Source: a virus. Taken from it: a stretch of 64,000 nt of DNA. The stretch lies in the IMG/VR virus record IMGVR_UViG_3300008117_004020, positions 1-64,000 of that record. One strand, given 5' to 3'. Below the pieces are notes generated by a model. That model had not been told where the DNA came from, did not search any database, and was given only the letters and a program-made list of their open reading frames with translations. The position numbers and the translations under genes are program-made. Below are positions 5,757 through 44,623 of this stretch, piece by piece. Every line of letters begins with the position of its first letter. The first letter of the stretch is position 1.

Positions 5757-7382
5757 TTAGAATGAACCTCCAGTGATAGGATTGCGCATAACAATCTTCA
5801 ACACTTTGGTAGGATCTTTTACCCAGATAGCTGGCATAGTCTGAGTCATGAACACTCTATAACCATTGAATTGTCCACTAGACTGGAAGCCTTGTGTACG
5901 ACCCATATAGTCCATAGTACCATTTTGATAGAACCACTTCAGTTGGTTATCCCAACCCAACTTCAACAAGTAGATGTTGTCATTAGTGTTATCAGTGATA
6001 TCAAAGATGATAAAGTTATAAGATGACAGAGGGAAACCATCAATGATTGGATTCTCAATATCATTAGTGTGTACATTATCAAACGCAGGATTCAAAACAA
6101 ACTGAATGTTTGCCAAGAATGGGATGGTGTAGCTAGTGTAAGCATATCCAAAGTTCAAGTCCATGCCCTGACCAGTGATAGCACCAATCTCAGAAGCATT
6201 GATAATCAAACCACTGTTGATAGCCTCTTTCTTAATAGCTTCATTAACCATTCTCATACCACCCATACCAGTCTGAACAACCAGCTTGCGCTTAGGATCA
6301 GGTCCTTTGAACTCCACACGACCATTGAAGAAGTTGAAGATCTCAGACTTAAACAGATCCAAGTTAAAGCTAGATTTGTTGTAGATGCGCTTGTAAGAGT
6401 TATCCAACTGCTTCCAAAGACCTACAGACAAACGAATATCATCTGGACCATCTTGCTTAACACGACCACCATGTCCCCACATCAAGTAGGTCTCAATGTC
6501 AGTAGCAATCTTAGTGAGGTGAGCAGCTTCCAAGCTAGTCAAGAATGTACGTGAAAGTGTACCACCTTGGATAGCACGCTTAACATACTCTTTACCCATC
6601 TTAGCAGCCAGACCTTCCAAGTTTGTGATAGAAGGATCATTGCTCTTGTCAAAGTTACGCCAGATTTCAATAACTGGAACAGAACCATCATTTTGCATAC
6701 CACCCTTCATCATCAAGTCAGCACGACTAGAAATGCTATAGTGTACGTGAGCTTCAGCTCCTCCTACATAGTTGTAGAACTCCCTGAAACCAGCGCCATA
6801 TGCACCAATGTCAGAGAAACGCTCACCATATTCACCACGCGCAGAACCTTTGCGGAAGAACTTGGTACCAATTTTCAAATACTTGTCACCATCCAACCAC
6901 TTAGTGTTGTCGTTGTTAACAAGCTGTACAGTGTAAATTACACCATCAGTCAAAGGAACGATGTCTTCTGTAGGAACAACATACAATTCCACGCCATTGT
7001 ACTTATCATAAGTGATGATATCACCATGACCAAATACACGCCTGTTCATTTTAATTTTAAATGTTTGACCATCAATACCCAATTGAGCACCAGGAGTTTC
7101 AATGTTCTCAACGATGTAAGGAAGATCTTGAGAAACTGGAACTTGCCATTTGTACTCTCCGCGAGCATTGTCAACCATAATTACATTCTTGCCACCAAAG
7201 CTAGACATTTGGTACAAAGGCATTTCTACCTTTTGCGCCATTGCCCAAAGATCAACTGGACCCATATCTGTAGGTTCAGCAGACTTCAGCATGTTTACTA
7301 GGTGGTAAGAATCTACGTGTGAGCTAGCTTGGTAGCTGGTATCCCGTAGAAATATACCATTGTTTAAAACTGGAGTTGCCAT
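5757..7382 (-). CDS. Major capsid protein (crAss-like)
   Basis: 541 aa; follows portal and scaffold-like genes; GLWKQL and C-terminal AIWVKDPTK as seen in crAss-like MCPs; strong codon bias. Confidence 0.85.
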   Translation of the reverse strand: MATPVLNNGIFLRDTSYQASSHVDSYHLVNMLKSAEPTDMGPVDLWAMAQKVEMPLYQMSSFGGKNVIMVDNARGEYKWQVPVSQDLPYIVENIETPGAQLGIDGQTFKIKMNRRVFGHGDIITYDKYNGVELYVVPTEDIVPLTDGVIYTVQLVNNDNTKWLDGDKYLKIGTKFFRKGSARGEYGERFSDIGAYGAGFREFYNYVGGAEAHVHYSISSRADLMMKGGMQNDGSVPVIEIWRNFDKSNDPSITNLEGLAAKMGKEYVKRAIQGGTLSRTFLTSLEAAHLTKIATDIETYLMWGHGGRVKQDGPDDIRLSVGLWKQLDNSYKRIYNKSSFNLDLFKSEIFNFFNGRVEFKGPDPKRKLVVQTGMGGMRMVNEAIKKEAINSGLIINASEIGAITGQGMDLNFGYAYTSYTIPFLANIQFVLNPAFDNVHTNDIENPIIDGFPLSSYNFIIFDITDNTNDNIYLLKLGWDNQLKWFYQNGTMDYMGRTQGFQSSGQFNGYRVFMTQTMPAIWVKDPTKVLKIVMRNPITGGSF

Positions 7383-7414: not shown

Positions 7415-8647
7415 TTACCTTTTAAAAATATTTGTAGATCTACTAATCTTTCTTTGTTGTGCTGGTTCATATTCTTCTGAAGATGAACTAGCTATCTTAT
7501 TTGCTTGTTCTGTTTTGAGTTGCCTTACTGTTTGTTCTACAGCTTGATTTTTACCTTGCTTTACCAGATTCTGACGATATGCATCTGGATCTGACAATAA
7601 CCAAAGAGCTTCAGCTATAAGAGAGTAGTTGGGCTCAACAAACTGGTACTTCTCTAAAAGATGTCCCAACAAGTTTGTAGGCTTACCACTAATAGAAGGA
7701 TATTGTGGTTGCACTAACCCTGTATATAAATTAGCTTGTGTCTTTTTATCAAGCTTGATTCCATTAATCTCAGCTGTTTTAAGAGCTGTATATACATGGC
7801 TAACATACTCCTCTGCTGCTTCTTGCTGTTGTTGCTTAAGTTCTTCCTGCCTTGCAAGCTGTTGTTTAACAACTTGTTCTTGCATTGCATCCAATTTTGG
7901 TTTGAACTTTTTAGCTTGTTGTTCAAGTTTACCAAGGTCTTTCCATGTAGAGATTTCTTCATCAATCTCAGAATCATTACCAAAACCTGTAGCTCTCAAA
8001 TAACTTCTAATGATGTATTCTTGGTCCCCATCATCTGTAGGATCCATTTCCCTCACTTGTTCCACTTGGGCAAGTGCTGCAAACAAACCTTTCAAATCCT
8101 GACCACCATCAGCAACATACTTTGCAGCATATTGTAATTCTTCAGGCAAACTCTCAAAGAACTGGCGGGGAGTCTCTTGTCTTACAGCTTTCTCTCTTTC
8201 TTGGAAGTTAGCTTCTAATAGCTCCTTCCAATCTTTAATAGAGTACTCCTCCATGGGTTTCTCATCTTCAAAAGGAATAATAAGTCCTTCTTCAATGAGC
8301 TTAGACATTGTATCAACCAGTGCTGATTTATCAGTGCGTGGTCTTCCAGCTGTCTTAGTTTTATCTTCATCCTCAGGCAGATCCAAAATAGCATCTAAAT
8401 CTTCTTTTGTAACTGTCTTCTGAGCGTCTTCTTTATTTTCATCCTCCTCATCATTTTTAGCATTGGGATCTAGAAAAGATAGATCTACTGCGTTCTTACT
8501 AAAAATGCTGGGTTTTTTATCTTCTTCTTTTGCTGCTGGTGTAGATGTTATTACACTGTCAGCACTTGGGGCTCCCTCAAAAAGAGAGTCAACATCGAAG
8601 TCAATTTGTTGTACAACTGTCTGTGTACTACTGTTTTGTGTGTCCAT
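7415..8647 (-). CDS. Scaffold-like acidic protein (crAss gene77-like)
   Basis: Acidic/coiled-coil protein of 410 aa between portal and MCP. Confidence 0.7.
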   Translation of the reverse strand: MDTQNSSTQTVVQQIDFDVDSLFEGAPSADSVITSTPAAKEEDKKPSIFSKNAVDLSFLDPNAKNDEEDENKEDAQKTVTKEDLDAILDLPEDEDKTKTAGRPRTDKSALVDTMSKLIEEGLIIPFEDEKPMEEYSIKDWKELLEANFQEREKAVRQETPRQFFESLPEELQYAAKYVADGGQDLKGLFAALAQVEQVREMDPTDDGDQEYIIRSYLRATGFGNDSEIDEEISTWKDLGKLEQQAKKFKPKLDAMQEQVVKQQLARQEELKQQQQEAAEEYVSHVYTALKTAEINGIKLDKKTQANLYTGLVQPQYPSISGKPTNLLGHLLEKYQFVEPNYSLIAEALWLLSDPDAYRQNLVKQGKNQAVEQTVRQLKTEQANKIASSSSEEYEPAQQRKISRSTNIFKR

Positions 8648-11487: not shown

Positions 11488-11673
11488 TTAAATAGTTAGG
11501 GTGTAATTTTGATCCCAGCTCATTGTTGTAACCCAACTAGGATCTGTAGGAATATCATCAAAGTCATCAATTTCAACAGCCTCTTGTTCATCACTTAAAA
11601 GAATAAGTGCTTCTTCTAGATTGATGTGTCCCAGCTTAATTAACTTTTCAATTAGTTCTTTTTTAATTGACAT
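11488..11673 (-). CDS. Hypothetical protein
   Basis: 61 aa; start overlaps the terminase stop. Confidence 0.6.
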   Translation of the reverse strand: MSIKKELIEKLIKLGHINLEEALILLSDEQEAVEIDDFDDIPTDPSWVTTMSWDQNYTLTI

Positions 11674-13880
11674 TATTTTATGTTTTTAAAGGCTGAACGA
11701 TGACTATTGTATTTGCTTCTTACAGTAGAAGAGTGACCCATATGTCTAAATGGGTTCAATTTTAATTTATGACTTTTTTCTGAATTTTCCAAATTATCCT
11801 TCTTAACTTCTACACGTTTAGCCAGTCCTCTGTTGGACTGCTGCACTTTAGCAAAAGCTATAAGAGCACAAAATGATACTATCCTATCCACGTTTAGTCC
11901 ATCCCTATATGCTTGCATTTCTTTAAGAAGCATTGGGTCAGGTATCCTCTCCACTCCATAAATAGTCTTCACTATTGTACCATCAGGTAGAGTTTCATGG
12001 TCTAATTCCTCTTTAAGAAATTCAATACCATATGATAGAATTGTGCCCTTGAATATTGTACCCACATTCTTCCATCCATACTCTTGGAATACATTCCTAT
12101 TAGCTCCTATGTCTTTGAGAAACAATATCATGTCTTTAGGAACCAGATACCTTTGTTTCTTCTTAGATATCATGTATTGGATGAACAGAGCTACGTTGTT
12201 CTCCACTATAGTCCAAGCATTATACCATTCTATAAGAAGCTCTAGTCTTTCATGTGTCTTGTTAATATCATCAAACCTACCGCACCAAGACGCCACTATC
12301 CTATCTCTCTCAATTGTGTTTTTAACCTTACCATCTCCTTCATCTTCAATCACTTCTACTGGATTCTTATATATGTAAATAGAACATAGAGAATCAGATG
12401 TAGTTGTCTTACCCTCACCTACAGGATCCACAGAGGCATAATACATCCCAAACGTAGGATCTTTATGTGGTCTTTCATATACACATATCACACCCTCTTT
12501 ATCTTCTGTCTTTTTAGAAATAGGGAAGTCCATGATGGGAAGCTTCCTGGATGAGGATGCTACAATCTTACCCTCTGCATTTCTAGACAGGTCCAAATAC
12601 TCAACTGAATAATCCTTATCTGAGATTCTTTGTAATTGTTTTGTAACTAAGTGGGAAGGGAACACACTCACTTTTCTAGAAGCAAATGCTTCTTCTATAT
12701 TGCGGGGGTGCTGAGATATTTCTAGTTGATATGCTTCTGGTGCTAAGTTCTTCTTTTGTTTAGTGAACTCCTCATCCAAAGCTTCTAATGCTTCTCCCAC
12801 TAGTGAATTACCATACCCATCTATGTATGGAGGCATAGACCACTGTTCTGGAATAAACAATCCTGTTTTTCCTAGGGTGCCTTCTGTATCTATAAGATTG
12901 GACTCCACCCCAAAAAATCCATTCTCTTCAGGATGTAAGATGTATTCTTTCAATGGTTCACACTGATCCAAGTCACCCACTGATCCTGCTGCAATAAACT
13001 GACCTGTGATGATGTGACCAGACTTAAGAGCTGGTTTCATGAATCCATAGGTGTCATTCATCTTAGGAGCAATACCAGCCTCCTCATGAAAGAAGTAGGT
13101 GACAGGACCACCCACACCATGTGTAGGATCTTTTTCAAAGGAGTAGAGATTTATAGTGGACTTTAGTCCCTTATATGTATCCCTACCATTTATCCTCACT
13201 TTAATCTGCTGTTGCCATGCTCCCACCTTGTCTGGTTCAGCTGGTCTATACCAAGCAGTGTGTTCATTAAGGAAGTTTTTATACTCATTCAAAAACTTCC
13301 ATGAACCTTTCTCATTTATATAGTCTTTTAGACTCGCTCCTATTTTTAACACTGCACCCTCTTCAAACCAATATTGGTTAATGAGTTTAGCCATGTGAAA
13401 ATAGGAGGAGGCTATCTGACGTTTTTTAAGGATAATGGCATGTTTATAATTAAGCTCAGCTAAATGTTCATATAGAGCCATGTGATACTGAGCATCTCTC
13501 ACTTTTGCAAAGTCAAATCTCTTTTCCTCCTTATCGTATATAGGCAGGAAATTAAGCCACATATAATAATCACGACTAATATACCAAGTGTTACCATTAG
13601 AGTGTACAATAATCCCCTTACGACATTTATTTTTCTGATCATCCCAGTAGGTAATGAAATCTTTTGTTTTAACTGGTGCAGAACAGTAATACTTTTGTCT
13701 TTGAAACTTTCTAGCTTCTGCATTAAATATGAGACTGCTTTCATCAAAATTGTATTGACCAGGTTCTTTAAATATAGAAGACACGAAGGCTTTAAACTCT
13801 TCTCTGGAAGAAAAGGTTGTTATACTCCATTCCCCATCTTTGTATGTAGGGATATCAGTATAATTATTTATTTCTTGCAT
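11673..13880 (-). CDS. terL: Terminase large subunit
   Basis: Walker A-like LKKRQIASS, Walker B FFHEEAG, nuclease motif YYASVDPV, C-terminal DRIVS. Confidence 0.92.
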   Translation of the reverse strand: MQEINNYTDIPTYKDGEWSITTFSSREEFKAFVSSIFKEPGQYNFDESSLIFNAEARKFQRQKYYCSAPVKTKDFITYWDDQKNKCRKGIIVHSNGNTWYISRDYYMWLNFLPIYDKEEKRFDFAKVRDAQYHMALYEHLAELNYKHAIILKKRQIASSYFHMAKLINQYWFEEGAVLKIGASLKDYINEKGSWKFLNEYKNFLNEHTAWYRPAEPDKVGAWQQQIKVRINGRDTYKGLKSTINLYSFEKDPTHGVGGPVTYFFHEEAGIAPKMNDTYGFMKPALKSGHIITGQFIAAGSVGDLDQCEPLKEYILHPEENGFFGVESNLIDTEGTLGKTGLFIPEQWSMPPYIDGYGNSLVGEALEALDEEFTKQKKNLAPEAYQLEISQHPRNIEEAFASRKVSVFPSHLVTKQLQRISDKDYSVEYLDLSRNAEGKIVASSSRKLPIMDFPISKKTEDKEGVICVYERPHKDPTFGMYYASVDPVGEGKTTTSDSLCSIYIYKNPVEVIEDEGDGKVKNTIERDRIVASWCGRFDDINKTHERLELLIEWYNAWTIVENNVALFIQYMISKKKQRYLVPKDMILFLKDIGANRNVFQEYGWKNVGTIFKGTILSYGIEFLKEELDHETLPDGTIVKTIYGVERIPDPMLLKEMQAYRDGLNVDRIVSFCALIAFAKVQQSNRGLAKRVEVKKDNLENSEKSHKLKLNPFRHMGHSSTVRSKYNSHRSAFKNIK

Positions 13881-14130
13881 TCACCAACTTTTCAAGTTTT
13901 TCAACATCTCCCTTTGTCTTATGCAAAAGCTCTATAAGTGTGTTAATAGATTTACTTCTGATTATTTGAGGATGGTGATAGTCTTCCCAGTATTCATATT
14001 TTAAATCCTTTGGGATGGCTGCCCATTGTTTTGTATATGGATTGAAATGAAACATCCAATCATACATAAATAAATCTGATGGGTCATACCCAGGTTCTAC
14101 ATCTTGATAAGTTTCTTGTTTCTTTGCCAT
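13864..14130 (-). CDS. Hypothetical protein
   Basis: 88 aa, operonic overlap. Confidence 0.65.
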   Translation of the reverse strand: MAKKQETYQDVEPGYDPSDLFMYDWMFHFNPYTKQWAAIPKDLKYEYWEDYHHPQIIRSKSINTLIELLHKTKGDVEKLEKLVNARNK

Positions 14131-16743: not shown

Positions 16744-17095
16744 CGCTTAGGAATTTATAGTCAAGCAATATATTACCCTCAGTTTGTATCTTAATCTCAG
16801 GATTGATGTAAATCTTCTTCTTACTCTTTCCCTCCTTAATTACAAGTTTGTTTTTCTCTGCTCTAGCTATAGCATTCCTAGCTGACTGCGAAGATTTAAA
16901 CACACCCTTCTCATGCACCTTGGTGCAGAATGCATTCAAGTCTTGCACTCCATCAATGGCTAACATAATCAGACAAATTATTTCTGAGCTGCTAAGTACA
17001 ATTCCAGACAAAAAACAATGGGTTATTATCTGAAATTGCACCGCAGCTTGCTTGTCTAACTTAGCCTTTTTTTCTACTAGGTTAACAACGGCCAT
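16730..17095 (-). CDS. Winged-HTH protein
   Basis: SSQSARNAIARAEKNKLVIK followed by a wing hairpin. Confidence 0.55.
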   Translation of the reverse strand: MAVVNLVEKKAKLDKQAAVQFQIITHCFLSGIVLSSSEIICLIMLAIDGVQDLNAFCTKVHEKGVFKSSQSARNAIARAEKNKLVIKEGKSKKKIYINPEIKIQTEGNILLDYKFLSVASN

Positions 17096-17097
17096 AA

Positions 17098-17418
17098 CTA
17101 TTGAGCAGTTTCTGTTTTAAGTTTTCTTTTCAGAGTCTTTGGTACAGGTATCTCATCACCTACATTAATACCAGCATCCTTAAGATCAGGATTGTTTGCC
17201 ATATCCTCTTCTGTGATGATATGATTCTCCATCTCCTCTTGAGGCTGTGGGTTGGTGATTTGACCAATCATCACCAATGCTCTAAGCTCATCAGCCCTAC
17301 CCATGGCAATCTTGGTGTTTAACTCTTGCAACTCAGCTCTTAGTTTAGCCAGCTCAATTGACTCATTTAGAAAATCAATAAGCTCTTCTCTGGTTGGTTG
17401 TTTTTGTTCTTCTGACAT
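17098..17418 (-). CDS. Hypothetical coiled-coil protein
   Basis: 106 aa; first gene after an intergenic promoter-like segment. Confidence 0.65.
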   Translation of the reverse strand: MSEEQKQPTREELIDFLNESIELAKLRAELQELNTKIAMGRADELRALVMIGQITNPQPQEEMENHIITEEDMANNPDLKDAGINVGDEIPVPKTLKRKLKTETAQ

Positions 17419-17514
17419 AATAAATTTGGTTTTATACTATAAATATACATAATATGTTTAAACTTTCCAAATTTATTTTTTAAACATAAAATAAAAAAGG
17501 GAGATTATCTCTCC

Positions 17515-18174
17515 CTATTTACCATATTCAAAGTCTAGTATTTTCCCCACCAGGTCTGAGCGGTGGTTATGTTTGAGCTTCACCCATTGTATCTCTTTAA
17601 TCTTCTTTGATAATTCTATAACGTAGGATAGACCGTTCATCTCCCCATTTCTGGTGGTGATGTCAGTCTGTTCATTATCCCCATTAATGATTATCTTACC
17701 TGTCTTACCCAGTCTTGTAAGGATGGCTAGCATCTCAGCCTTTGTCAGGTTCTGTGCTTCTTCCACCACCAAGACATCATCTATTGTCTTACCCCTTATA
17801 TATTGTACTGGCAGTGCCACCACTTGTTGCTGGTTGACCAGCGCCTCAATCTTTTCTTTGGAATAGCACTTAGTGAGGTTTTCCAAGAAGGCTTCTAGGT
17901 AGGGGTTAAACTTATCATTCAATGATCCTGGTAGAAATCCCAGGGAATGTCCCACTTCTACAGCTGCCCTGGTCACTAGGATTTGCTCACATTCCTTTTT
18001 AAATAGAAAGTCCAAAGCTGTCTGTGCTGACACTAGAGACTTACCACAGCCTGCCCTCCCTGTAATCACCACTATTTGGTTCTCCCTTATTATCCTCTTA
18101 GCTTCCTTTTGTTCTTCATTGAGGGTGACACTATACTTAATCTCATTCTTACGTTCTCTATTTGGTTCTTTCAT
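17515..18174 (-). CDS. phoH: PhoH-like ATPase
   Basis: GRAGCGKS, TRAAVE, LGFLPG, YIRGKT, EEAQN, LTRLG, GDNEQTD, HRS.LV. Confidence 0.95.
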   Translation of the reverse strand: MKEPNRERKNEIKYSVTLNEEQKEAKRIIRENQIVVITGRAGCGKSLVSAQTALDFLFKKECEQILVTRAAVEVGHSLGFLPGSLNDKFNPYLEAFLENLTKCYSKEKIEALVNQQQVVALPVQYIRGKTIDDVLVVEEAQNLTKAEMLAILTRLGKTGKIIINGDNEQTDITTRNGEMNGLSYVIELSKKIKEIQWVKLKHNHRSDLVGKILDFEYGK

Positions 18175-18476
18175 ATATTAGCGTTTTATACAAGACAGAC
18201 CTCTAGTTCCCCTGTGTCCTTTTAATTGCACACTTCAACTAGAGCTGTACGTCAGACTTTGCGTCTTTACACCCCCTTGGAAACTCATCTCCCTGTCAAT
18301 TCAGGACACTCTACCTATGTGTATTGTTCCAACCTCTATGTCTATAATGCAACCAGTTTTGTACCTATTGGAGAAAACCCTGGGATCTATTTGACCCCTC
18401 CAACCCAACTTCTGGTCCACTACTCACTATATAGCCCCTCGTGGACGTCCTCTGTGGTATAACAGATGGTACAATA

Positions 18477-18484
18477 CAAATATA
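18477..18484 (-). promoter_or_regulatory. Bacteroidota -7 box (TATATTTG) facing phoH
   Basis: Matches TAnnTTTG on the minus strand, about 300 bp upstream of phoH. Confidence 0.55.
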
Positions 18485-18512
18485 CTACATACCCTGGACA
18501 TACCCAAATTTA

Positions 18513-18528
18513 TGTTCCACGTGAAACA
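18513..18528. promoter_or_regulatory. parS-consensus site
   Basis: TGTTCCACGTGAAACA matches TGTTNCACGTGAAACA at every position; intergenic. Confidence 0.75.
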
Positions 18529-18531
18529 TAT

Positions 18532-18728
18532 CCCCCCTAAGTCACCCCTCAAGTACACCCCCCTAGTTACCCCCTAGGTCCCTATGATAATTTGGTGTAT
18601 GTTAGATGTTGTGAGTACCTTATAATAACAAGACCCCCCAGTCAGAGACAGCGAGGGCTACCCCCCTAGGTCTTGGGGACAAGAGACTGAATCTATACAA
18701 TCTAAGGGGGAGGGGGTGACACAAGGGG
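18532..18728. repeat. C-/G-tract cluster with CCCCCTAG-type repeats
   Basis: Several C4-C7 runs followed by G-runs in an otherwise AT-rich genome. Confidence 0.7.
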
Positions 18729-18739
18729 AAGACAAGGAC

Positions 18740-18798
18740 TTCTACTCATCCATCAGTCTGCATGCTTCGCATGCATCCTGCTGTCTGGACACCTATAT
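18740..18798 (+). promoter_or_regulatory. Motif-hairpin-motif repeat, copy 1
   Basis: TTCTACTC ... TGCATGC-TTC-GCATGCA ... GGACACCTATAT. Confidence 0.55.
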
Positions 18799-19130
18799 GG
18801 TATTAGTGAAGGAGAGTAGATAGATTATGGTGGACACACGTGTCATCTTCTATCTATTGTATTGTATATTAGTCCTTTTGTATATTGAGGATATGCGCAA
18901 CCTTGGGTTCATTGGGAGTTAAAGTGTAGTTTCGCCCATGAATCACATAACAGAATAATCTACACACATCCTAGGTCTCTGTATTATATGCAGGGACCTA
19001 GTTTCATTTAATCACAAATGGTTGAGTCTTAATGCTTTGACTCGTAATACCACAACAGCCTTAGCAGGCACACAGGGAACATGTAATAGTGTTCCCTTCA
19101 TTTTGTATTCTTTAACCTAAATATATTCAA

Positions 19131-19421
19131 ATGAAGAAGATTGTCTACTATCTTATGGGTGTTGTCAGCACTACATCATCCATAATGTTCATCTATTACA
19201 TCTTTAATCTGTCAGAAGAACCTAGACCCAAAGACAATGATATTCAGAGAAGATATGATAAGAATATCAAGAGTCAGGGGTATAGTCTGCTTATGCTTAT
19301 ATCAGCAGCAGTCATTATTATTCTATTCATGTCTAGTTGTAGCGCCTCTAAAACACGCTGGGGCTGCACAGGTAGTAAATACCAGACAGGATATAAGAGT
19401 AAACTGGGGTATGGCTATTAA
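19131..19421 (+). CDS. Hypothetical membrane protein
   Basis: 96 aa with two hydrophobic segments. Confidence 0.55.
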   Translation: MKKIVYYLMGVVSTTSSIMFIYYIFNLSEEPRPKDNDIQRRYDKNIKSQGYSLLMLISAAVIIILFMSSCSASKTRWGCTGSKYQTGYKSKLGYGY

Positions 19422-19438
19422 TCCTTTATCATCTTAGT

Positions 19439-19576
19439 ATGAAACGTCTATTCATGTCCATCATGGAGTTCATGAACTTCAAGGACATAGCCAATTTCAA
19501 CTATGACTTCACCATATCTAATGGTGAGGTGATAGTAGATGCGCAGGCAGAAATGCTTGCTGCAATAGGCTATTAA
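19439..19576 (+). CDS. Small hypothetical protein (not in ORF track)
   Basis: MKRLFMSIMEFMNFKDIANFNYDFTISNGEVIVDAQAEMLAAIGY, followed by a terminator. Confidence 0.55.
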   Translation: MKRLFMSIMEFMNFKDIANFNYDFTISNGEVIVDAQAEMLAAIGY

Positions 19577-19590
19577 AATCAGCACAGGTT

Positions 19591-19628
19591 AAGAACCCTA
19601 ATGGAGCAATCCAAAGGGGTTCTTTTTT
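19591..19628 (+). terminator. Intrinsic terminator
   Basis: AAGAACCC...GGGTTCTT followed by a T-run. Confidence 0.7.
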
Positions 19629-19637
19629 AAGACAGTA

Positions 19638-19666
19638 TTCTACTCTGCTACGCAGGACACCTTTAT
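19638..19666 (+). promoter_or_regulatory. Motif-hairpin-motif repeat, copy 2
   Basis: TTCTACT-CTGC-TAC-GCAG-GACACCTTTAT, between a terminator and the next start codon. Confidence 0.65.
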
Positions 19667-19706
19667 CATATTGGTATATTATTCTTTTTAACCTAAATCT
19701 TTTATT

Positions 19707-20090
19707 ATGGCACAGCACATCAAAGGCAAGTTTGGTTTTACCACAGTTGTTATTGACCAAACCTACTATCTCTTCACTTGTAAGATTATTACTAGCGCAG
19801 ACACAGCACTACCTATTATTCAGGGTGTAAGCGCTAGAAATATCACAGACAAGAAGGGTAATGTCAGATCTCTCATCACTTATTGCACCATGGACTACAC
19901 AGAGCATCGTAGAATGCAGATTGCTATTGCAAAGCATTTAGAGGACCATGCTATGTATAAGTTGAAGCGTAAGTATGCGTGGGCGCATGAAGATGATAAA
20001 TTACCAAGGATTGTTGGTAAAATAGAACTGCCTGAACTATCTCTTGAAGATAGAGACATTCCTTCGTGGGGAGATGATTTGCCTTATTAA
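19707..20090 (+). CDS. Hypothetical early protein
   Basis: 127 aa, acidic C-terminus DDLPY. Confidence 0.7.
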   Translation: MAQHIKGKFGFTTVVIDQTYYLFTCKIITSADTALPIIQGVSARNITDKKGNVRSLITYCTMDYTEHRRMQIAIAKHLEDHAMYKLKRKYAWAHEDDKLPRIVGKIELPELSLEDRDIPSWGDDLPY

Positions 20091-20096
20091 TCTCAC

Positions 20097-20125
20097 AGAC
20101 CTCTGTAGCAATACAGGGGTCTTTT
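20097..20125 (+). terminator. Intrinsic terminator
   Basis: AGACCTCTGTA-GCAA-TACAGGGGTCT followed by TTT. Confidence 0.75.
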
Positions 20126-20139
20126 ATTTGTTAGAAAAC

Positions 20140-20173
20140 TTCCACTCTGTACTATCGTACAGGACACCTTTAT
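20140..20173 (+). promoter_or_regulatory. Motif-hairpin-motif repeat, copy 3
   Basis: TTCCACT-CTGTAC-TATC-GTACAG-GACACCTTTAT. Confidence 0.65.
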
Positions 20174-20237
20174 GTTTTTGCTATATTGTCCTTTTATAGT
20201 TAGTTATTTTATTATTTAATCTTTAAATGTTTATTTT

Positions 20238-20768
20238 ATGCAATTGACCTTAACAGCATTAAACAATGTATGTCAATTTTTTGGTAGCAGCGCCTATGTA
20301 ATGTTCAGTGCTACCACTCCTAATGGAGACACTATTGAAATCGGAATCACAGAGAATTCCCTCAATAGAGTAGGTGCAGACATCTTATCTCCTGATAGTC
20401 TGATTGGTTGCAAGATTACCACCAAGGAGTATGTTGACAATCGCACAGGTGAGATTGTCAATGTAGATGATAGGATAGAGAGTAATGTTCTTGCAGGTAA
20501 GGGTGTCACCTTGCTTAATTCGCTGAACCATGTTCTCACCTTCTCTGAACTATTTAAAGCACAGCGCTTTGAAGCAAATGCTGCTATCAACGGTAGAGTA
20601 AAAGCAGAGCGCGAAAGAGAAAAGCGCATGATTCAAATGCAAAAGCAAATGGAAAGGTTAGCACTCAAAACACAAACCCTTGCAGTTGCAGACGCACCTA
20701 TTGATGAAGCACCTTTGGTAGAAGAAACTCCTACACAAGAGTTGTCTATTGAAGAAGAAGCATTCTAA
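20238..20768 (+). CDS. Hypothetical early protein
   Basis: 176 aa; beta-rich N-terminus, coiled coil, acidic tail ending in Phe. Confidence 0.7.
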   Translation: MQLTLTALNNVCQFFGSSAYVMFSATTPNGDTIEIGITENSLNRVGADILSPDSLIGCKITTKEYVDNRTGEIVNVDDRIESNVLAGKGVTLLNSLNHVLTFSELFKAQRFEANAAINGRVKAEREREKRMIQMQKQMERLALKTQTLAVADAPIDEAPLVEETPTQELSIEEEAF

Positions 20769-20955
20769 TTTGAGATGATATACAGGGGTCCCTCTAATAT
20801 ATAGGGGGACTCTTGTATAATCATACAACCTGCAACCCCTGCCCTCCACACAATGCTGCGCTACATACGAACACATAAGGACAACATATGGACAATATAG
20901 CAGTCCTCGTGTGCAGTGTAAAGCGTATGACACAAAAGGGTGAATAAAATCTCTA

Positions 20956-20980
20956 TAACTAATTGATAATCAAGAGGTTG
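20956..20980. promoter_or_regulatory. Inverted pair of IHF-consensus sites
   Basis: TATCAA-TTAG-TTA (minus) and AATCAA-GAGG-TTG (plus) both fit WATCAANNNNTTR. Confidence 0.5.
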
Positions 20981-21237
20981 TTAGTGACAGGAAAACAAGG
21001 GGTGTTTTTATAATCATCTGACAATCAGTGTGATTGTAGAAAAAATTCGAGCGTGAGTATATGGCTATATGAGACAATGTGTGTATGTGTGTGGTGTATT
21101 ATGTCTCTATATATACATATGTCATGCTATGAGAATATTGGTTTTGGAGTATCAGTTTACATCGCCCTATATATGTCTATATATTAGGGGCCTTTTATTA
21201 ACACAGACCAAAATGGCTGTATACAGCTGTGATTCTT

Positions 21238-23644: not shown

Positions 23645-24664
23645 ATGAGTAACACTTCACCAACAAATTCAGGTTTTCAAGTGCTAATTCCTGAAACAGC
23701 CATCCAAGAAAGGGTGGACAAATTAGTCATGTATAAATTGAGACATGACAAATTACATGGTATTTTAAGCGATGTGATCGCGAAAGAAAGGTCTAAAGTA
23801 GTGGATGACCTAAAAGACAAATGTCTAGAACAAGTTAAAGATGATTTCTTAGGCGTAAAAGAAAGAATCATCAATGCTTATTTGGAGAGCAAAAAGTCTG
23901 AGATTATTCTTAAGGGTGAGGTGTTAGCCACTGTAGAAGATGGCACATCTCATAAAGAACTCCCTAAACTCATCAGTTTTTTGTCTTTATTCAAGCAAGC
24001 AATGATCGTAGGTCCCACAGGTTCAGGTAAATCAACATTGGCAAAACAGGCTGCTAAGAGTCTCAATCTGAGATATGGCAGTTTCTCATGTAATATGGAA
24101 GCAAGCAAATCAGAATTGGTGGGCTTTGCTAACATAAATGGGTATGTTACCAGTCAATTTCTTGATTTTTATGAGAATGGTGGTGTGTTTCTTGTTGACG
24201 AGTATGATGCTATGTCTCCATCTATTGCTGTAGTGTTAAACGCAGCATTTGACAGGACCAATCAACTCAGTGTGTCTAACAGGACAGAGAATCCAATTGC
24301 TAAAAAGCATAAGGATTTCTATTGCATCCTGGCAGGTAACACCTGGGGCTCTGGTTCTGTGGAATATCAGGGTAGAGAGATGCAAGACATGGCGTTCCTT
24401 GATAGATTTAAACTTTGTAGACTGTTCATTGATTATGATGCAAACATTGAGAAAATGATTGCAGGTGATAATTATGCATGGTTTATGAAGATTAGAGAGT
24501 TTGTGGAAAAGAATGTGGATAGTGAGAAGTTCTCTACAAGATCTATTCATGATGCTGCTACACTGTTGTTCAATGGCTTCACAAAGCAAGATGTCATTGA
24601 CATGATAGCGCATCATTGGGACAAGGAATTGAGGAAGAAGATTATTGGTGCCGTGGGTGTTTAA
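23645..24664 (+). CDS. MoxR/CbbQ/CobS-like AAA+ ATPase
   Basis: GPTGSGKS, FLVDEYD, AGNT.G.G, D.AFLDRF. Confidence 0.9.
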   Translation: MSNTSPTNSGFQVLIPETAIQERVDKLVMYKLRHDKLHGILSDVIAKERSKVVDDLKDKCLEQVKDDFLGVKERIINAYLESKKSEIILKGEVLATVEDGTSHKELPKLISFLSLFKQAMIVGPTGSGKSTLAKQAAKSLNLRYGSFSCNMEASKSELVGFANINGYVTSQFLDFYENGGVFLVDEYDAMSPSIAVVLNAAFDRTNQLSVSNRTENPIAKKHKDFYCILAGNTWGSGSVEYQGREMQDMAFLDRFKLCRLFIDYDANIEKMIAGDNYAWFMKIREFVEKNVDSEKFSTRSIHDAATLLFNGFTKQDVIDMIAHHWDKELRKKIIGAVGV

Positions 24665-44155: not shown

Positions 44156-44623
44156 ATGATCAAAAAAGAAAACCTGCCTAGTGAAGACATTATAAAAATA
44201 CTTTCTAAGGAGTTTATTGAGCGAATTAAGAAGGAAACAGGCAAAGATTACAATATTCAAATCATCAATCACACTCTGATTGCCTCTAGAGTTGAGCAGA
44301 TTATTCCAAGAAAAATAGTGTCTCTTGATGATTTAGAGAAGATTATTCTACGCAATATGCCAGTTGAAATACCTAGTGGTAAGTTTAAGTCTAAGAGTAG
44401 AATTCGCGAGCTTGTGGATGCTAGGACCATATTCTGCTACATGGCCTGTAGGATATTTGGGTTCACTGTTACAAACGTAGGCAGATATCTAAAGAAGCAC
44501 CATACTAGCGTTATGTATCTAGTTAGAAAGTGCGAGATTCTTATGGAAGTTGATCCTGAATACTTGGGATTGTTTCAGTCAGTAAAAGACAAACTTAAAG
44601 AAGCATATGAAGAAGTTCTTTAA
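44156..44623 (+). CDS. Stand-alone DnaA domain IV (HTH) protein
   Basis: SKSRIRELVDARTIFCY.....TVTNVGRYL.KHHTSVMY. Confidence 0.8.
   Translation: MIKKENLPSEDIIKILSKEFIERIKKETGKDYNIQIINHTLIASRVEQIIPRKIVSLDDLEKIILRNMPVEIPSGKFKSKSRIRELVDARTIFCYMACRIFGFTVTNVGRYLKKHHTSVMYLVRKCEILMEVDPEYLGLFQSVKDKLKEAYEEVL

Follow-up and report, generated by a model that had tools for sequence, protein, structure and literature searches.

Results

Gene blocks and strand-switch region of a freshwater crAss-like phage

A non-coding, ORF-poor strand-switch region of 956 bp (18175..19130) separates a late gene block on the minus strand from an early block on the plus strand and contains a 16-bp inverted repeat, TGTTCCACGTGAAACA, at 18513-18528. 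All positions refer to the window, the whole stretch of 64,000 nucleotides that was analysed, which represents the first 64 kb of an IMG/VR virus record of 118,147 bp (98% complete, GC 0.349) from an uncultured freshwater phage. The first gene of the minus-strand block, directly left of the gap, encodes a PhoH-like ATPase (17515..18174; phrog_170, 2e-60; PF02562, 5.9e-52). It is followed by several small ORFs, a PD-(D/E)XK exonuclease, the large terminase TerL (11673..13880, minus strand; phrog_6681), which served as positional anchor and tree marker, the portal, and a Crass-type major capsid protein. To the right, the first plus-strand ORF (19131..19421, 96 aa, no family) has a homologue in the relative L227 that is 40% identical. 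Further small early ORFs are followed by helicase, DnaB, primase, PolB, and a sigma-factor-like protein, and most early proteins are without known family.

Since Crass_capsid, CrAss_Ring_1, and CrAss_Ring_2 domains are encoded and the terminase is about 25% similar to those of Flavobacterium, Cellulophaga, and gut crAss-like phages, the phage was placed as a distant crAss-like phage. Megablast and blastn searches against 50,697 GenBank phage records yielded no DNA match. The absence of parA and parB, noted previously for the window, was borne out by six-frame searches of the whole genome, which detected neither ParB_N nor a ParA-type AAA_31 domain; a parB is accordingly not found by this search in the rest of the genome either. 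A Pfam scan of 123 ORFs (93 + 30) out of 133, the remaining ten or so being mostly very small, plus three across locus boundaries, revealed no partition, integrase, or RepL family, and no toxin-antitoxin or other plasmid-type maintenance gene was present among the scanned ORFs.

Just ahead of DnaB and primase, a protein of 155 aa with a DnaA C-terminal HTH domain is encoded at 44156-44623 (PF08299, 5.8e-10). Homologues were detected in all five complete relatives, including two without any parS site, and the protein may bind the phage origin or counteract host DnaA. For a small HTH_8 protein, homologues were found in none of the five. Accessory genes unusual for a phage were also observed, a ferritin-like protein (PF00210, 2.1e-17) at 1561-2145 in the structural block and, at 23645-24664 in the early block, an AAA_5/CobS-like ATPase followed by a DUF7192 protein.

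A single 16-mer with exact fit to the parS consensus

The inverted repeat at 18513-18528 fits exactly to the chromosomal parS consensus TGTTNCACGTGAAACA given in PMC7022226. It is present in a single copy in the window and in the whole genome, and its 14-bp core, GTTNCACGTGNAAC (18514-18527), is unique genome-wide even if one mismatch is allowed. Flanking TA/TA residues enlarge the palindrome to 18511-18530 (local context aaattTA TGTTCCACGTGAAACA TAtcccccc), the sole asymmetry being C at position 5 versus A at position 12. Both features, a consensus parS in the main non-coding strand-switch region and its prolongation by TA/TA, had been part of the original prediction and were confirmed here. 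The core is the conserved part, and positions 1 and 16 of the 16-mer as well as the outer flanks are not kept in relatives. The 16-mer is unchanged in a contig of sequencing run X2; a contig of run X4 stops at 18537, and the contigs of runs X11 and X14 do not span the site.

A hand calculation from the base composition (GC 0.349) gave about 1.5e-4 expected exact matches to the 16-mer per 64-kb window, so that a lone exact match could be obtained by chance in a very large scan. A shuffle test of the window with up to three mismatches was uninformative in this respect. It is the comparison with relatives described below that excludes a chance origin.

Directly 3' of the site, C-rich direct repeats of the CCCCCCTAAGTCACCCC type are located on the plus strand at 18532..18580, with an extra copy at 18661-18672. 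A G-rich inverted copy, GGGGGAGGGGGTGACACAAGGGG, is found at 18702..18730 (plus strand), where 18713-18728 corresponds to 18533-18548. The sequence CCCCCCTA of these repeats occurs in three copies genome-wide, all of them in the strand-switch region, and the full unit reads CCCCCCTA[A/G]GT[C/T]ACCCC. The C-rich repeats following parS are also kept in L227 and L228, the G-rich inverted copy in L227. They may be iterons or early promoters. The length of poly-C is variable in run X2, and contigs of run X4 break at the C-rich repeats. About a dozen relatives, most of them without parS at the strand switch, contain TAGGGGG-type motifs 4.4-6.6 kb upstream of TerL, which is the location of the strand switch in the window's genome. 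The possibility of DnaA boxes or parS half-sites in this genome was also considered and dropped: GTTYCAC half-sites (16 on the plus strand, 9 on the minus strand) are scattered and DnaA-box-like words are unclustered.

Two other parts of the gap are conserved. The segment 18226-18480 consists of near-identical nucleotides in L227 and shows strong conserved blocks in L228 and L039, a conservation exceeding that of the flanking protein genes. It overlaps an ORF of 78 aa (18226-18462, plus strand, no family) and may represent a small gene or else a non-coding element at the RNA or DNA level. Before the first plus-strand ORF, about 65 nt (19007-19073) share 79-82% identity with the distant relatives L018 and L013, in which no homologues of the neighbouring ORFs are detectable; this block may function as a promoter or leader. 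An Rfam search of 17000-21000 gave no match at E values up to 1, and a tRNA search of the window gave none. A scan for sigma-70 promoters and terminators yielded 7 promoter-like sites versus 4.2 expected, based on a sigma-70 model that may not suit Bacteroidota. Promoters of Bacteroidota differ from the sigma-70 type, and the scan was therefore set aside.

Conservation at the same junction in relatives

More than 654 IMG/VR stretches with a related terminase were available, and 72 loci were kept for comparison. At the same junction, GTTCCACGTG[A/G]AAC is present in L231, which represents the same strain, in L227 (PhoH 89% identical), and in L228 (PhoH 86%). The latter is from the contig of L003, the closest of the 72 loci with TerL and PhoH both 86% identical. 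L003 aligns over the left part of the gap, and its GTTCCACGTGGAAC is placed exactly opposite GTTCCACGTGAAAC of the window. In L227, the syntenic site reads AGTTCCACGTGGAACA. The three-way alignment revealed the 14-bp core as an island: position 12 is A or G, positions 1 and 16 vary, and the flank upstream of the core has diverged with an indel, the C-rich repeats downstream being kept.

Searching for the core followed by a run of C residues retrieved 13 stretches, among them L231, L227, L228, L223, and L234. L223 and L234 are two copies from a distant phage, in which GGTTCCACGTGAAACA is likewise found beside C-runs. This genome of 113.7 kb harbors exactly one site, located a few kb upstream of a TerL gene whose product is 32% identical. 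The other eight stretches are six GC-rich contigs and two phage-like contigs, none of which showed protein similarity to the window's phage. At the syntenic position in relatives, where absence of the site was to count against the original prediction, the core is thus present in L231, L227, L228, and L223/L234.

Recurrence of the palindrome at other positions

The pattern TGTTNCACGTGNAACA is contained in 8 of the 73 loci, including the window's own. Three of five complete relatives harbor exactly one core palindrome. The other two, G003 and G004, have no site even at three mismatches. In 50 partial records, 13 sites were detected in 12 records, one of which (G006) is the only partial relative with two sites, and a reversed control pattern had no match in any of the 50. 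Altogether, the same palindrome is found at at least six other places in relatives, in some cases inside coding sequence by way of amino acid changes. Site A falls within a gene of 88 aa immediately upstream of TerL, sites B and B2 within an acidic linker of the gene following the portal gene, and site C is the strand-switch position also occupied in the window. Relative to the TerL start, additional sites are located at +2.4 kb, +10.2 kb, and +13.9 kb, and G006:52742 is about 45 kb away from TerL in a gene of more than 720 aa. Among genomes at least 90% complete, G000 carries site C, G001 and G002 site B, G005 the site at +13.9 kb, and G149 a site upstream of TerL. The sites are placed in non-coding DNA or in all three reading frames, where they specify V-P/S-R-E/G-T (VPRET/VSRET), STWN, or FHVE. 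In all 22 phage sites tallied, the two free positions are Y and R; eight sites are CC..GG, ten are mixed like that of the window, and four are TT..AA.

A census of all 4096 palindromes of the form xxxNxxx|xxxNxxx was performed over the 73 sequences (957,514 nt). With 15 matches, the parS core was joint first of all 4096. The 1280 palindromes of the same composition had 0.04 matches on average, the runner-up of this class four. The parS core was also the only palindrome present at five distinct positions relative to TerL, which are -4.6 kb, -136, +2.4 kb, +5.3 to 5.6 kb, and +10.2 kb; the next best reached four overall and two within the composition class. Other frequent palindromes are each confined to one or two homologous positions. 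In eight reference genomes of crAss-like or Flavobacterium phages, the gut or cultured crAss-like phages crAss001, crAss002, cr1_1, cr55_1, cr130_1, and cr273_1 as well as phi14:2 and Fpv20, the core is absent even at one mismatch.

Sites in coding sequences and turnover on the TerL tree

At site A, L005, L006, L024, and L036 have the codons GCT GTT CCA CGT GAA ACA. The equivalent in the window (14002..14019, minus strand, in the 88-aa gene upstream of TerL) specifies A-I-P-K-D-L and is not a parS site. The motif W-x-A-[IV]-P-R-[DE]-x-Y is common to 58 site A homologues, and its arginine is encoded by AGA or AGG in 36 rows and by CGT in 14. CGT GAA ACA occurs in only eight of the 58 rows, and in four of these eight, valine (GTT) completes the 16-mer. 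Since Glu-Thr is exclusive to the eight rows, the other 50 having different residues, site A was made by amino acid replacements in an otherwise conserved motif.

Site B specifies V-S-R-E-T in L004, L010, L015, and L041, encoded as GTT TCA CGT GAA AC. In the window, the equivalent is V-T-K-E-D (8399..8413, minus strand, in the 410-aa gene after the portal gene), again not a parS site, and other relatives have V-S/T-K-E-E; the surrounding linker is otherwise highly variable. A basal lineage retains V-S-R-G/E-T but uses the codon TCT or TCC, a change of one base that disrupts the core. Because the peptide is kept where a synonymous change disrupts the core, conservation at site B may act partly on the protein; the basal lineage points to a degree of constraint on the peptide or to a site in slow decay.

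For a TerL tree calculated with IQ-TREE, a nearly complete TerL free of internal stops was required; 59 rows were used, and 14 of the 73 pooled sequences were excluded. Sites A, B, C, E+F, and G are all contained in one well-supported clade of 18 rows, and sites B2 and D in a neighbouring clade. Sister taxa within the 18-row clade differ in their site, for example L004 with site B beside L005 with site A. Absence labels on this tree are weak, since most records are partial. As read from these sequences, the pattern is that of turnover of a position-independent cis element, usually present once per genome. The site is dispensable, as G003, G004, and the relative inside a Chitinophagaceae MAG have none. 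The comparisons further indicate that the 14-bp core is under purifying selection at the DNA level and that the site was created repeatedly and independently within the clade. Selection beyond common descent is apparent from the conserved island in diverged flanks, the five positions of the census, and the residue changes at site A.

parS sites of the candidate host family

Relatives of the phage were present in five MAG bins labelled Campylobacteraceae, Clostridium, unclassified, Chitinophagaceae, and Fluviibacter. Only the Chitinophagaceae bin contains a full-length relative (117.8 kb), which is itself without a parS site. With five labels for five bins, the link to Chitinophagaceae rests on one bin and on the crAss-like affiliation. 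The chromosome of this MAG has four GTTCCACGTGGAAC cores in a non-coding gap of 1.5 kb between ybeY and gidA/mnmG, three of them within the full 16-mer TGTTCCACGTGGAACA and one preceded by C, and a ParB of 308 aa is encoded. Each of these sites is part of a repeated unit of about 240 bp (L247 6180-7700, G056:C181), and a fifth, degenerate copy is located at 6347. The ybeY-gidA gap may be the oriC-proximal centromere region of Chitinophagaceae.

The core was detected in 33 of 41 sampled Chitinophagaceae genomes, mostly in tight clusters; a control pattern matched three genomes. The clusters extend over about 1.5 kb, with up to nine sites in one genome and in one case next to gidA. Among the matches listed, 73 of 75 sites are of the same three variants as in the phages, and GTTCCACGTGAAAC, the variant of the window, is the commonest with 36 of the 75. 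Beyond these 75 sites there are 12 more match rows, corresponding to about six sites. As to the proposed comparison with the host parS, the phage variants are identical with those of the candidate host family.

Discussion

In the reading we prefer, the 16-mer functions as a copy of the host parS, its likely use being placement or inheritance of the phage genome, and a probability of about 0.6 appears appropriate for this reading. Binding of the phage site by host ParB is likely from the sequence evidence. That the benefit consists in inheritance or positioning, rather than in some other effect of ParB loading, is proposed more tentatively. Mechanistically, a host ParB dimer would bind the 16-mer via its helix-turn-helix, close as a CTP-dependent clamp, and slide onto adjacent phage DNA. 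The phage would give the cis site alone and the cell ParB, ParA, and SMC. The phage genome would thereby be placed and handed down in cells not lysed at once, in a carrier, pseudolysogenic, or plasmid-like state, in parallel to phi29, which moves its genome into the forespore via host Spo0J. Such a non-lytic state is an assumption, given that the scanned ORFs include no integrase, RepL, toxin-antitoxin, or other gene for plasmid-type maintenance. The original prediction that the phage borrows host ParB gains support from selection on the DNA sequence and from identity to parS of the candidate host, while the roles considered at that time, segregation, SMC recruitment, shielding, and titration, are not separated by these data.

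Host ParB could also load without any benefit for inheritance. Many replicated phage copies could constitute a sink for ParB and disturb ParA, SMC, chromosome segregation, or replication control, or sliding clamps could act as a borrowed repressor silencing or shielding the neighbouring late gene block. We consider such functions unlikely, but they draw on the same sequence evidence as placement or inheritance, and the lack of plasmid-type maintenance genes fits better to a purely lytic phage. ParB redistributes over about 15 kb (10.1101/2021.11.02.466941), and in genomes at least 90% complete the sites are within about 14 kb of TerL, inside this distance. A single site per genome, however, would be a weak sink early in infection, and G006:52742 is about 45 kb away from TerL. 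Moreover, the sampling favours sites near TerL, as most loci were retrieved around this gene, and accounts in part for the observed proximity.

A reader encoded by the phage would make the palindrome a parS look-alike, functioning as an operator, as an origin element by virtue of the C-rich iterons, or as a pac site recognised by a dimeric phage protein. The site of the window does adjoin repeats unique in the genome, candidates for such a protein could be hidden among the early proteins of no known family, and a DnaA-C-type HTH protein is encoded. A pac function would suit site A, whose position within the small gene immediately preceding TerL is the classical one for pac sites, and a position near TerL holds for sites A, B, C, and E but fails for G006:52742. 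Against this stand the exact parS match including the Y/R preference and the equality with chromosomal variants of the candidate host. An operator or origin would also not be expected to shift from a promoter region into at least three structural genes and different frames. Half-sites are neither enriched nor clustered, no ParB_N fold was found in the genome, and the distribution of the HTH proteins does not follow the site, the DnaA-C-like protein being present in two siteless relatives and the HTH_8 protein in none of the five. A phage-encoded reader is therefore judged quite improbable. Least probable by far is a chance or neutral 16-mer without function. It is in keeping with a single copy, with the few matches that are expected over very many windows at about 1.5e-4 each, and with the two complete relatives lacking the site. 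Yet the syntenic site is kept while its flanks diverge, 15 matches at five distinct positions contrast with a class mean of 0.04, none of the eight reference crAss-like or Flavobacterium genomes has the core, and site A was created through amino acid changes.

Use of a host centromere site by a phage has precedents. phi29, a podovirus with a protein-primed genome of 19 kb that infects a spore former, is like the window's phage classed as lytic, lacks parA and parB of its own, and has the ParB-binding sequence of the host chromosome on board. The differences are five sites versus one, and phi29 itself versus a 118-kb crAss-like phage probably of Bacteroidota. To our knowledge, Bacteroidota do not sporulate (no endospores). 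The use of the site must then differ, and Spo0J-dependent spore entrapment probably does not apply to the window's phage. For phi29, the five parS sites for host Spo0J and exploitation of the host segregation machinery for spore entrapment are described in PMC2731898, which also summarises the Spo0J-dependent segregation of phi29 and Nf genomes into the prespore (Meijer et al. 2005). A change of site position among relatives is not known to have been described for phi29. The principle is thus known from phi29 and Nf; the window's phage differs in the presence of one site, the turnover of its position, and a host group regarded as non-sporulating.

Compared with chromosomal parS of Chitinophagaceae (consensus as above), the phages have the same 16-mer and the same three variants, but the chromosomes harbor clusters and the ParB-less virus genome one isolated site; with one site per genome, there is no counterpart to the origin-proximal cluster. 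A chromosomal par operon with a single parS is able to stabilise otherwise unstable plasmids (PMC7022226, in the main text of which the word phage does not occur). Phage-plasmids such as P1, N15, and cluster A actinophages carry ParABS cassettes with their own ParA, ParB, and parS sequences (PMC11652158). What they have in common with the window's phage is a phage-borne site resembling a centromere, by which an episome would be inherited; a partition cassette of the P1/N15 type is not present in the window's phage, since ParA and ParB were both not found. Carjivirus communis is also crAss-like, has opposed replication and structural blocks, and persists without integration. Its proposal as a phage-plasmid relies on RepL, a toxin-antitoxin pair, and two origins, and in the preprint parS, ParB, centromere, and segregat- do not occur, partition being mentioned only for P1; the journal version may say more (PMC10983915). 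Unlike Carjivirus communis, the window's phage has no detectable RepL. A further likeness exists to dif-mimicking sites by which CTX-phi and other elements exploit host XerCD. There, too, a phage copies a cis site of host chromosome maintenance and uses host proteins, for recombination and integration instead of ParB loading. In our literature search, no paper on a chromosomal-type parS on a crAss-like phage was found.

These considerations touch the persistence of crAss-like phages without integration, for which the prototypic phage-plasmid proposal names no partition system in its preprint version (PMC10983915). A host-type parS that is kept, lost, and rebuilt elsewhere in the genome in a lake-water lineage offers a concrete and cheap hypothesis, the cost for the phage being 16 bp. 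The phi29 principle would then reach beyond spore formers to hosts of the Bacteroidota type, and protein-coding sequence would prove able to accommodate a centromere. On the other side, the principle is known, no member of the clade is in culture, and the site is absent from the cultured crAss-like phages tested. A more far-reaching version, which we regard as speculative and rather unlikely, is that the freshwater crAss-like lineage exists part-time as a parAB-less episome on the ParABS/SMC system of its host, with host ParB, loaded at a single movable parS, both partitioning the genome and silencing the adjacent packaging and late genes as it slides over them. One host protein would then be borrowed for two tasks, centromere binding and repression. 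An episome lifestyle of this kind would have left its mark on the evolution of the site, which is repeatedly gained, decays, and arises anew, in some cases through recoding of structural genes. It would also offer a mechanism by which crAss-like phages persist without lysogeny, a long-standing puzzle. Orphan parS sites could also mark the host lineage and flag non-lytic lifestyles in metagenomic phage genomes.

Host-type parS sites without a partner gene may be widespread in viral contigs. At least 126 IMG/VR stretches carry TGTTNCACGTGNAACA, and none of 80 loci examined among these belongs to the clade described here. Among the matches listed, a ParB_N protein is encoded in only two of 50 unrelated viral contigs with TGTTNCACGTGNAACA, and in one of 12 that are at least 90% complete. 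Arrays of sites are also found in unrelated contigs, four in a contig of 12 kb (L104/L105) and five in L139, and L136, an unrelated record of 77 kb that is 97% complete, has three parS sites.
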